Below are positions 40,564 through 46,925 of a stretch of 64,000 nucleotides of DNA, one piece after another (the stretch's first letter is position 1; each line of letters starts with the position of its first letter). Both the position numbers and the translations under genes were made by a program. This DNA is from Trichormus sp. ATA11-4-KO1 (GTDB lineage: Bacteria; Cyanobacteriota; Cyanobacteriia; Cyanobacteriales; Nostocaceae). The stretch covers positions 256,001-320,000 of the forward strand of contig JAHHIM010000036.1 in NCBI GenBank assembly GCA_019358915.1. Direction: 5' to 3'. Below the pieces are notes generated by a model, which saw only the letters and a program-made list of their open reading frames with translations, was not told the DNA's origin and searched no databases.

Positions 40564-40770
40564 TGTAACTAAAAAGCTGTCATGAACTAAGTGAACTAAA
40601 TACAGTGTTACGTGTCCTGACCTCGCTACCTTGCGAATATCCGCAGTTTTTGCCACAAAATCACTCGTCAGTCCTCTCTAATTGTGTTGATTGATTAATT
40701 TTGAGGCACATTTAGGCACGAATTGCCTAAATGTGCGAATATAAAGAAAATCTTAAGAAGGACAAGACTC

Positions 40771-41007
40771 ATGGTGACTGCCAAAATGATGCAACAAATC
40801 TGGGCTGTAATCGAGTCTACCCAAGTCAGCACTTTGCTTCAGTTTGATGATGCTGCCTTAGTACAATTACTTCTCCAGAAGTTAAAAGCCCAGCAAGTGC
40901 TGGACACACAGACAGATAGCACCCTCAATACTTACATCAAATCTAAACTGCCCTTAATTCGCGATACGGCTGAAGGTAGACTATCATTTGGGCAAGGTAA
41001 TCGTTAA
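40771..41007 (+). CDS. Small conserved hypothetical protein
   Basis: MVTAKMMQQIWAVIESTQ...YIKSKLPLIRD; AAGGA RBS before ATG 40771. Confidence 0.65.
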   Translation: MVTAKMMQQIWAVIESTQVSTLLQFDDAALVQLLLQKLKAQQVLDTQTDSTLNTYIKSKLPLIRDTAEGRLSFGQGNR

Positions 41008-41071
41008 GTACAAGAAACGAAATAATTGCTCATGGCTAGTCATTTTCTCAGTATTTAACCAGTACAACATT

Positions 41072-41338
41072 ATGAATCACTGGCTAGTAATTTCCCTGGT
41101 AGCTTATCTAATTGGAGCAGCAATTGAAGGGGTGAGTACAGCCAGTCAGCTATCTCATTCAGCTCCAGAGTTAACTCAAGGCACACAAGACCAATCCCCA
41201 GAATCAGGCACTCCGCCTAGCTCAAGTTGGCGAGTTGTTGCCACTATTGCCTCGGTGAGTATCTGTGGCGCTTTCTGTTGGCCCTGCCGCCTGCTACACC
41301 GTTCAATTAAAGGAAATATTTCATCTAAAGATTTGTAG
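41072..41338 (+). CDS. Small two-TM hypothetical protein
   Basis: Two hydrophobic segments; CWPCRL motif. Confidence 0.55.
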   Translation: MNHWLVISLVAYLIGAAIEGVSTASQLSHSAPELTQGTQDQSPESGTPPSSSWRVVATIASVSICGAFCWPCRLLHRSIKGNISSKDL

Positions 41339-41625
41339 TGCTTCACTTGCTCTGATATTAATAAATTTCTGGATTTATATATTTTTTGTATCTTTATATA
41401 CGGTTATGTATTTTAAGTGCGTAATATAAAAGTTTAAATTTGTTAATTTTTTTTAGACTAGTGACTCTTTGATCAAAGAGTATGGTGTATTCTCAGAAGA
41501 AATTTCCCTAGTTTTGGTAAGTAGTTTGAAAATTATAGGCGATCGCTACCGTCAATAATTAAGACAAAATCGTAGCACAAATTATTACAGCAATTATTTC
41601 ACAGGCAATATTGCATATCGTCAGC

Positions 41626-41971
41626 AGGCACGAAGAAAAGGTACTAAACTTTAGGCTTGAAAGCATAAACCCGGAGTTTAATAACCTATCTTCCTGCCTA
41701 AACTCCTAAAATACCTTAAAGGTTCCCTAGCCGAGAGATTAATAGGGTACTTTGGAGTGTCCTATCACCTAGAAGCCTAAGCTGGTGAATCTACTAGACT
41801 TCTCATCACCTGTTAATACAGCAAAAATGAGATATTTACGACAGTCACAGTCAACCAACCCATAATCCGGTTAAGTAGATGTCGTTAGGTCTAGAAAAGC
41901 CCGCAATGTTTTCAGGTGTGATGCAAAGCAGGCTGAAATAGGTTCATAGGTTAAGCACTAACCTGTGACTT
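41626..41971 (+). ncRNA. Candidate ~350-nt structured non-coding RNA, family unassigned
   Basis: Series of helices including a three-way junction, with G-U pairs that work only on the + strand; no ORF. Confidence 0.5.
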
Positions 41972-42131
41972 ATGTACTATATATTACTAAAGTAGTAAAA
42001 AGTATCGCTCTATAGAGTGTTGTTTGCTTGATAGTTGTATGTTATGTACAAATATCAACATTTACTATGGTTTGCATTAGTTTATTTAGTAGCTCACTGT
42101 TTCATCAGCTTTGTTATTGATGAATGTGAAT

Positions 42132-42818
42132 TCAACACTCAAAATTGTTGTATGTGAGGTAACGTGTAAACCACTCACTCGCCAGTTGCGCCACTGTTTC
42201 CAAAGCGCCTGGTTCTTCAAATAAATGAGTTGCTCTGGGAACAATTTCCAATCGTTTTTGAGTTCGTAACTGTTTGAGTGCATCCTCATTCATCTCTATC
42301 ACTTGTATGTCGTATCCGCCAACAATGAGCAACGTTGGTGCTTTGACGTGAGGTAATGCTGAACCCGCTAAGTCAGGGCGTCCACCGCGAGATACAACAG
42401 CTTTGACAGACTGCGGGCGTTTTGCTGCTGCGACCAAGGCTGCACCGCCTCCTGTACTAGCTCCAAAGTAACCAACTTTGAGGTGAAGGGTATGTGGGTT
42501 CTGTGCTAACCAATCTGTACTATCAACTAACCGTGATGCCAATAACTCAATATCAAAGCGTAAATGTCGTGTCCGTAAATCAATTGCTTCCTCATCAGGA
42601 GTAAGCAAATCAATTAGCAAATTTGCCAATCCTGCATTTTGTAAGACTTTGGCAACATATCGATTTCGAGGACTGTGGCGACTACTACCACTGCCATGAG
42701 CAAATATTACTATAGCTGTAGCATTATCTGGAATCACCAAATTGCCCTCTAGCTTCACATCACCTGCTGTCACTGACACCAGATGTTCGTGGTAGTTTTG
42801 TGTTGATGTCATGTCCAC
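42132..42818 (-). CDS. Dienelactone-hydrolase-family alpha/beta hydrolase
   Basis: FAHGSGSSRHSPRN, GASTG, SRGGRPD, ATHLFEE. Confidence 0.88.
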   Translation of the reverse strand: MDMTSTQNYHEHLVSVTAGDVKLEGNLVIPDNATAIVIFAHGSGSSRHSPRNRYVAKVLQNAGLANLLIDLLTPDEEAIDLRTRHLRFDIELLASRLVDSTDWLAQNPHTLHLKVGYFGASTGGGAALVAAAKRPQSVKAVVSRGGRPDLAGSALPHVKAPTLLIVGGYDIQVIEMNEDALKQLRTQKRLEIVPRATHLFEEPGALETVAQLASEWFTRYLTYNNFEC

Positions 42819-43514: not shown

Positions 43515-44288
43515 ATGCAGCAGTCTACATCTAGAAACTACTGGGATTTTGTCCGGCAACTTGCTACACTATCCGCGATTATCGGTGCTTTTGTTGTCAA
43601 TATAGTATCGAACATCTTTCCACTCAATGAACTAAGCATAGGAGAAATTGCTAACACATTGTTCAAAAATGTTTTGATTATCCCTGCTAACTATGCCTTT
43701 GCCATTTGGGGATTGATTTACCTAGGGTTATTCGCATTGGCAATTTACCAGTTTCTTCCCAATGAAAAACACGATTTGGACTTACGCAAAACAGGATATT
43801 TCTTAGTAATTGCTTCTATTGCTCAAATTATCTGGGTTTATCTTTTTCTCTCCAGGCTGTTTGTTCTTTCTGTAATTGCAATGCTTTTGATTTTGCTACC
43901 ACTGATAGGAATTTATTTGCAGCTAGGGATTGGTAAAAAGCGTATAACTTGGAGCAAGAAGTGGTTTGTGCATTTTCCTATCAGCATTTATCTAGGCTGG
44001 ATTAGCGTAGCAACTATTGTCAATGTAGCCAGTGCCTTGGATTTCCAGGGGTGGGACGGGTGGGGCATCTCTGCTGAATTATGGGCTGTGATGATGTTGT
44101 TGGCTGCTTTCGCAATTGCAGCAGTTATTGCCATTCAGCGTCAAGACATTGCTTACACAGGAGTCACCGTGTGGGCATTAGTTGCGATCGCACTCAAGAA
44201 CTGGAACAATTTTTTACTCAGGAATGTGTCCTTAATTTTGGCAATTATCCTTGTTCTCATCATGACAATTAAAAGGTTACGAAAATGA
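43515..44288 (+). CDS. TspO/MBR-like tryptophan-rich membrane protein
   Basis: PANYAFAIWGLIY, SIYLGWISVATIVN; multiple TM helices. Confidence 0.78.
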   Translation: MQQSTSRNYWDFVRQLATLSAIIGAFVVNIVSNIFPLNELSIGEIANTLFKNVLIIPANYAFAIWGLIYLGLFALAIYQFLPNEKHDLDLRKTGYFLVIASIAQIIWVYLFLSRLFVLSVIAMLLILLPLIGIYLQLGIGKKRITWSKKWFVHFPISIYLGWISVATIVNVASALDFQGWDGWGISAELWAVMMLLAAFAIAAVIAIQRQDIAYTGVTVWALVAIALKNWNNFLLRNVSLILAIILVLIMTIKRLRK

Positions 44289-45936: not shown

Positions 45937-46925
45937 ATGATATTGCAACCCTCCAATCATGCAGCTTGCTACTTCCCCCTGATGAGTGGACGCTATGAAG
46001 TTAAGCCGGGGATGATGCCTTTTGGTTGCTGTTTGGGTAATGGTCAGGCTGACCAGCAGGTGTTTCAAATCGATGATAATTTTACTGATTACCGCCAGAG
46101 TAAACTTTTAGCTCGTGCAGAACGGTTGAGCAAATACTACCAGACCTCTAATTATTCTCAGGCTGTAGCAGGTGCGATCGCTCGTTTAATAATTACTCGC
46201 CTCACCCAAGAACACCCACAGTATTTTGATTGCCAAAAAATAGCCAATACCCTCATCTTCCATAACCAACTTACCCAAGAAACCCTCTGCTTAAATACAG
46301 ATTGGCAGTTACAGCAGGTACAAGGTAGTCAAGTTGTTCCCGCTTACGCCTCTATCCTTGATGCTTTAGCCGCGCAGGTAAGGAAGATTTCACCGTTGTC
46401 TGTCGTGCTGAAGATGGTAGCAATTGGCTGAGTGCAGTACATCTTTGCTATCCCAATCATTGGTCAGCCGAGGAAAAAATTGGCAAAAACTTTGCTGCTA
46501 TCCATGCACCCGTAGCCGGTATGGAAAAAATCAATCGCCGAGCGGATGCGATCGTCAATACAATGATTACTCAGAAACCAATGGTACGGTTCGCCTGGGG
46601 TTTAAGTACAGACACTCGCCTCAACCATCATCCCGAACCACCGCCTGATGTGTCAGTCAATGATTGGCAAGGTAGAAGCTTTGACCAGCAGCAACCGCAA
46701 CTTTACTTACGAATTGAACGACAGGTGATTTGGGGATTACCAGAATATGAAGCGGCGTTGTTTACTATTCGTACCTACTTTAGAGATTGCAGTGTGGTTA
46801 AACAAGACCCAGTATTACGGTCTAAACTTTACGCTGCAATTGAGTCTATGACGTTAGCATCGCTGGTGTATAAAAGATTGACAGAGAGTAAAGATAGTAT
46901 TTTGCAATGGCTAGATGAGATTTGA
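45937..46925 (+). pseudogene. DUF3445 / heme-dependent oxidative N-demethylase alpha-like gene, frameshifted near 46381
   Basis: Restoring one base gives AAQV(Q)EDF...VHLCYPNHWSAEEKIG...IHAPV, in frame with RFAW...LRIERQ...LFTIRTY. Confidence 0.78.

Follow-up and report, generated by a model that had tools for sequence, protein, structure and literature searches.

A candidate structured RNA of heterocyst-forming cyanobacteria, predicted behind a promoter-like module shared with c-di-GMP enzyme genes

Described RNAs and the candidate locus

The systems closest to the locus treated here are the orphan ncRNA motifs of bacteria and the sRNAs of Nostocales (Rfam; PMC4734099, PMC12873609), which are intergenic and gene-free, possess their own promoter and a terminator-like end, and show covariation. 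The candidate described below is likewise of this type, with its promoter and ends predicted, but described Nostocales sRNAs are far commoner. Other known classes share single features with it. For instance, the c-di-GMP-I riboswitch (GEMM) is called to mind by a promoter-like module that precedes GGDEF-EAL genes, and c-di-GMP enzymes are reported to control cell fate and heterocyst development in heterocyst-forming cyanobacteria. The tracrRNAs of Cas12k (V1 and V2) are of a similar size class, are cyanobacterial, and have short motifs (GGGTTAG; GATAGG..CTCC) resembling those of the candidate, while the omegaRNAs of HEARO/IscB, IsrB and TnpB resemble it in length and in having a multi-branch fold.

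The window, i.e., the whole stretch analysed, comprises 64,000 nt of contig C36 of Trichormus sp. ATA11-4-KO1 (genome G000). The gap that holds the locus extends from the end of a convergent small ORF (41338) to that of an alpha/beta-hydrolase gene (42132). An initial annotation had described the locus as an ORF-free gap carrying a series of hairpins. No ORF of at least 60 aa overlaps 41626-41971, and all twelve helix segments named in that annotation lie where it placed them, with 74 of 74 pairs able to form on the plus strand. Two small ORFs of 94 and about 93 aa occupy 40723-41338; they lack an NCBIfam match and are not found at the corresponding place in a second genome, G011.

Rfam models gave no match at gathering score in the window and none at E<=10 within 41300-42200; for five homologous loci, five weak matches fell elsewhere and none on the element. 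This RNA is not described in the literature searched; PMC12873609 may list it in its motif set. Five diagnostic words are absent from six supplementary files of PMC4734099. The lack of an Rfam match, together with covarying homologues and the lack of a conserved reading frame, supports the earlier proposal of a novel ncRNA. As to a type I toxin-antitoxin system, six-frame translations of four homologues have no common start, and the open frame of the core is not hydrophobic. We regard the locus as most likely a real, rare and undescribed structured RNA candidate that belongs to none of the families tested, and for which a function can be proposed.

The reading that we prefer, and to which we give about an even chance, is that of a stand-alone, minus-strand ncRNA behind a captured promoter of c-di-GMP genes, acting in trans and most likely by binding protein as a decoy or scaffold. 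The module, which elsewhere would drive c-di-GMP enzyme genes, would start a transcript near 41969. This transcript would form two 5' hairpins and then a multi-branch domain, in which a variable insert would be framed by two conserved blocks that helix P3 unites, and would stop at a long 3' hairpin near 41626. Its expression would follow the same signal as that of the c-di-GMP genes.

Anatomy and probable direction of the predicted RNA

The features of the predicted RNA and of the module before it are listed in Table 1.

Table 1. Features of the candidate locus and the adjoining module (positions in the window).
Feature	Position	Strand	Remarks
Candidate ncRNA locus	41626..41971		
Predicted ncRNA	41626..41969	-	~340 nt; ends predicted
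P1 hairpin	41946..41966	-	GTTA-N5-TAAC palindrome
P2 hairpin, then U-rich run	41898..41934	-	two-sided changes in G060 and G379/G380
P3, 5' strand	41891..41897	-	partner 41730-41724; joins both conserved blocks
Variable two-hairpin domain	41778..41887	-	60% identity to G087
Conserved core	41720..41777	-	84% identity to G087; contains P6 and the P3 3' strand
P6	41767-41761/41746-41740	-	CUCC-bearing loop, 41760-41747
P7, long 3' hairpin, terminator-like	41626..41699	-	41693-41667/41658-41632 conserved
Promoter-like module	41970..42047	-	common to 15 genomes; function predicted
TAACAT box	42039..42044	-	from alignments; possible upstream element or alternative -10
Unpaired motif AGCAAACAACA	42018..42028	-	conserved
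Imperfect palindrome	42006..42019	.	centre ~42 nt before the predicted start
GTA-N8-TAC box	41974..41987	.	encloses the putative -10, TATAGT, at 41981-41976

The curated minus-strand structure has 57 pairs, and across the three genomes with a full copy (G000, G011 and G087) 97.7% of its 171 cells are paired; these three sequences, two of them 90% alike, also served to build the structure, and the covariation therefore leans mostly on one comparison. Changed pairs are kept in 15 of 17 cases between G000 and G087 and in five of six between G000 and G011. The three full copies contain five two-sided changes, a number reached by 2 of 500 shuffles, and all five are in P7, where 98.6% of the cells of 23 pairs are paired at 60% identity. 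Such changes would also be expected of an ordinary terminator. P3 forms seven of seven pairs in each full copy, with two one-sided and zero two-sided changes, and in P6, as in P3, the changes among these copies are one-sided. Alternative helices are possible in all three.

Identity to G087 over successive segments is 89, 60, 84, 58 and 60%, and that of the neighbouring gene is 77%. This profile suggests that P3 links two blocks of conserved sequence, and that in P7 the pairing is conserved rather than the letters. It also bears on the proposition that there is no single RNA here, but AT-rich repeats folding by chance alongside a terminator and the stub of a promoter, or else a decayed gene, which we consider extremely unlikely. 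The end hairpins are explicable as operator and terminator (the P1 palindrome may double as a DNA operator), and a decayed gene could account for an eight-codon match to the RuvC region of Cas12k on the plus strand and for an open frame of 21 codons on the minus strand. Against this, the core (84%) and the 5' domain (89%) exceed the neighbouring gene in identity, and both frames, as judged by tblastn with four Cas12k proteins and by reading of the frames, lack a common start, are flanked by stops and are accompanied by frameshifting gaps.

The initial annotation had assigned the RNA to the plus strand on account of G-U pairs thought to work in that sense only; in fact, the MFE structure of either strand contains 12 G-U pairs. 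For G000, folding beats shuffles on both strands, as that annotation had proposed to check, with z of -3.26 for plus and -4.91 for minus (0 of 100 shuffles as good on either). The plus-strand helices persist only in part in G087, where 51 of the 74 pairs are kept (53 on the minus strand) and two helices fare poorly, i.e., the second helix (3/6) and the one closing the junction (4/8). Read in the minus sense, G087 itself folds at z of -5.01; for the plus sense, z is -1.26, and 9 of 100 shuffles do as well. The covariation term of RNAalifold is favourable for minus (-2.29) and unfavourable for plus (+5.8), and the same 57 columns yield 56, 55 and 56 pairs on the minus strand of the three full copies versus 49, 51 and 49 on the plus strand. 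Counter-evidence to a clean strand call comes from G011, which folds alike in both senses (z -4.5 and -4.7). The orientation of the module is strand evidence independent of folding: since it faces same-strand GGDEF-EAL genes in 11 of 15 genomes, it would fix the direction of transcription. The RNA is thus most likely read from the minus strand, opposite to the first proposal. The three full copies have z of -5.5, -4.5 and -6.3, while the five gene leaders examined fold weakly (z -1.7 to +1.3).

Known sRNAs feature C-rich anti-SD loops, and the CUCC of the P6 loop is kept in all three full copies. An RNA of this kind, with its own predicted promoter and a terminator-like end, might be a trans-acting, base-pairing sRNA whose P6 loop or 5' linker blocks ribosome binding sites. 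We deem this unlikely, as the conserved core is mostly paired and a crude scan of 4197 mRNA starts with three seeds returned nothing better than shuffled seeds did, the best duplexes (-17.8, -20.2 and -20.7 kcal/mol) being within or short of the shuffled-seed bests. A closed core, conserved paired sequence and the lack of an mRNA target above shuffled seeds in that scan weakly favour protein binding over base pairing.

The promoter-like module and its genomic settings

The module, which the initial annotation did not describe, is conserved, and AGCAAAC and GTAR are spaced by 41 nt in all 15 of its members. It is best taken as putative promoter DNA with a start near 41969. Alternatively, TAACAT could act as the -10, with a start near 42032 and an RNA of 410 nt. 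The fixed spacing disfavours this arrangement, which is kept conceivable by covariation of the palindrome among the first five members. Only 5 of 15 members pair the palindrome fully, and it may be either a DNA site or a small hairpin. GCAAAC and the short hairpin of the module resemble the GEMM consensus, but the five loci have no Rfam match, the loop is not GNRA, and the hairpin is often broken while the spacing is fixed, as would suit promoter DNA. Seven of 15 members, among them the four that bear RNA, have a perfect copy of the NtcA-like GTA-N8-TAC box; NtcA control of the module is a predicted lead, with the box perfect in those seven only and coincident with the -10. Since G000 has no second copy of the module, no regulon is marked by it there.

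An inverted repeat at 42028-42058 overlies the upstream box in G000 and G011 only, the two genomes in which the hydrolase gene sits between the module and a membrane-protein gene; it may be the terminator of the hydrolase gene. The gene at 43515, presumably TspO-like, matched no Pfam or NCBIfam model.

Homologues are few. BLAST matched 4 of 201 genomes of the family, namely G000, G011 (90%), G087 (74%) and, for the 5' part only, G060, and a pattern search of all 389 family genomes added one chance match and nothing else. Covariance models of the 5' part added G046 (5/151), G379 and G380 (2/80), and then five (6/80, one weak match being dropped) and three (3/78) further members; when 40 genomes were searched again, no more came to light. 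The module thereby totals 15 of 389 family genomes, of which 110 were searched only with the weaker model R2, and the 3' 260 nt were found in G000, G011 and G087 only, in a search covering all but 108 family genomes. Copies are patchily distributed. Beyond the family, model R3 matched 0 of 143 genomes, and 28 short order-level BLAST matches in 300 genomes were not upheld by the model. Plasmid and phage BLAST gave nothing, or short matches at E>=0.2 only. Scanning of a genome contig collection yielded five matches (two real, three by chance) and of metagenomes four (two loci already known and two chance matches inside genes), and scans of viral collections returned 0, 5, 32 and 17 matches, none reaching beyond the seed. 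Three candidates were discarded before counting: a match in G209 inside a gene, a weak one in G295 (31.8 bits), and a second one in G060.

The module is found at four unrelated kinds of locus. A same-strand gene comes next in 12 of 15 genomes, and in 11 it encodes GGDEF-EAL domains. Nine modules lead an orthologue of a kinase-AAA-GGDEF-EAL gene (by Pfam for G046; by DNA similarity at the 5' end for the other eight), and two lead a CHASE3-PAS-GGDEF-EAL gene, with another GGDEF gene after it in G379. The link to c-di-GMP would run through the shared promoter only. The kinase-GGDEF-EAL gene has no close match in G000, G011 or G087 (best 47-55%). Flanks upstream of the kinase-AAA-GGDEF-EAL gene differ in most of the nine genomes (L114-L122, L060), and this gene may move together with its promoter. 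Repeat elements of 130-190 nt are inserted in three of the leaders (L117, L118 and L121).

The remaining settings differ from these. In G060, only P1, P2 and the U run follow the module, as an 80-nt stub; the histidine kinase gene beyond it is convergent. In G087, the long hairpin is followed after ~65 nt by the start of a same-strand aldo-keto reductase gene. G000 and G011 have a convergent gene next, and the pairing is nonetheless kept. The RNA is not tied to one particular downstream gene. In G029, the sister genome of G087, 356 nt are cleanly missing, beginning just ahead of the -10 and reaching through P7; both flanking genes are kept at 95-96%, the junction is at a 9-nt repeat, and the upstream half-module remains. 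As 15 genomes carry the module uninterrupted, we read this state as a deletion in which the RNA was lost. The RNA is dispensable in G029.

Could the RNA be a cis-acting leader, akin to an attenuator or riboswitch, that has been orphaned in G000 and G011, with the long hairpin as a controlled terminator? The reductase gene of G087 would suit such a role, as would the position of the module as gene leader in 11 other genomes, the hairpin that the kinase leaders share shortly before the start codon, and the alternative helices. Yet G000 and G011, neither of which has a gene following the RNA, still keep the pairing when compared with each other; the reductase is located elsewhere in G000 without a module and survives the loss of the RNA in G029; and the kinase leaders show no significant homology to the RNA beyond the first ~110 nt. 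A same-strand downstream gene, the mark of a riboswitch or attenuator, is present for one of three full RNAs, versus the 12 of 15 modules. We judge a cis-acting leader to be distinctly unlikely.

As a further possibility, the module could be the front of an undescribed, c-di-GMP-linked regulatory leader that, in three genomes, was turned into a free RNA titrating the regulator of that leader or binding the second messenger. A signalling gene would then have given rise, through its promoter and leader, to a new RNA gene; the P1-P2 stub of G060 would be its minimal form and G029 its loss. We hold this to be quite improbable. Under the preferred reading, the trans-acting RNA presumably arose by capture of promoter plus leader. 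If transcribed, the locus would represent a family of structured RNAs in heterocyst-forming cyanobacteria that has gone undescribed and is tied by its promoter to c-di-GMP enzymes. The 16 loci, in which one promoter serves either of two signalling genes, a short stub or a long RNA, and in which the RNA has once been deleted, would be a compact case for how RNA genes arise, although rarity and the absence of a partner limit their importance for now.

Comparison with guide RNAs and mobile elements

The initial annotation had also proposed an orphan guide scaffold of transposon type, and an orphan omegaRNA- or tracrRNA-like scaffold, or a mobile-element relic, would accord with the size of the RNA, its closed multi-branch core, its patchy distribution and the occurrence of the module at four unrelated kinds of locus. 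Moreover, the profile of Cas12k V1 tracrRNAs ranks G011 above 298 of 300 shuffles (two score as high), with a 15-nt motif in common. The same profile leaves G000 and G087 unmatched, i.e., it matches one of three copies, and the candidate is not downstream of cas12k and has no array or anti-repeat. As far as the opening 400 characters of each sequence in Dataset 1 of PMC12416283 go, the V2 tracrRNAs are unlike the candidate by eye; the word GGTTAGTGCTTAA also occurs in one CAST record of that source.

More generally, profiles gave no match, weak motifs apart, to 36 TnpB/IscB loci (30 of them TnpB) or to tracrRNAs at seven cas12k loci. Among 55 neighbouring proteins at five loci there was no effector nuclease or transposase, and no recombinase or reverse transcriptase of the kind linked to IS110 bridge RNAs and retron ncRNAs. 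G000 contains no match to cas12k or to the RRXRR family (IscB/IsrB) and a single ordinary TnpB; PF14239 is absent from G000 and G060, gives short matches in G011 and G087, and gives full matches in G046. In contrast to the omegaRNAs of HEARO, IscB, IsrB and TnpB, the candidate has neither an Rfam match, an adjacent effector nor a variable 5' end; its 5' side is the most conserved part of the element, unlike a variable guide. A TnpB omegaRNA spans the tnpB 3' end and the right end of its element, and no tnpB is near this RNA. The element is, furthermore, single-copy in G000, and the plasmid, phage and viral collections hold nothing of it. We conclude that a guide scaffold or mobile-element relic is very unlikely, and the trans-acting, protein-binding RNA remains the preferred reading.

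Several minor observations concern Cas12k. On the plus strand, 41891-41911 spells eight codons, SLGLEKPA, a match to part of RuvC-I in Cas12k, and the RNA is therefore complementary to ~23 nt of cas12k mRNA where that gene is present, G000 being without it; this complementarity is probably due to chance. A Cas12k gene remnant on the plus strand was considered and rejected, as GLEKPA lies in eight codons bounded by stops, and the pairing of P2 and P3 also accounts for its changes. Elsewhere, locus L021 of G011 (contig C22) has a truncated cas12k and an intact-looking tracrRNA running into a tRNA gene, with no CRISPR array, and may be a decayed type V-K transposon.

A simple repeat scan detected no CRISPR array on contig C36 and nine CRISPR-like arrays, of several repeat types, on contigs C1, C10, C11, C18, C60, C68 and C73 of G000. 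Within the window, a HODM_asu-like gene (PF11927) at 45937-46925 is in two pieces of 164 and 134 aa in different frames, a split that may reflect a frameshift or an assembly error.
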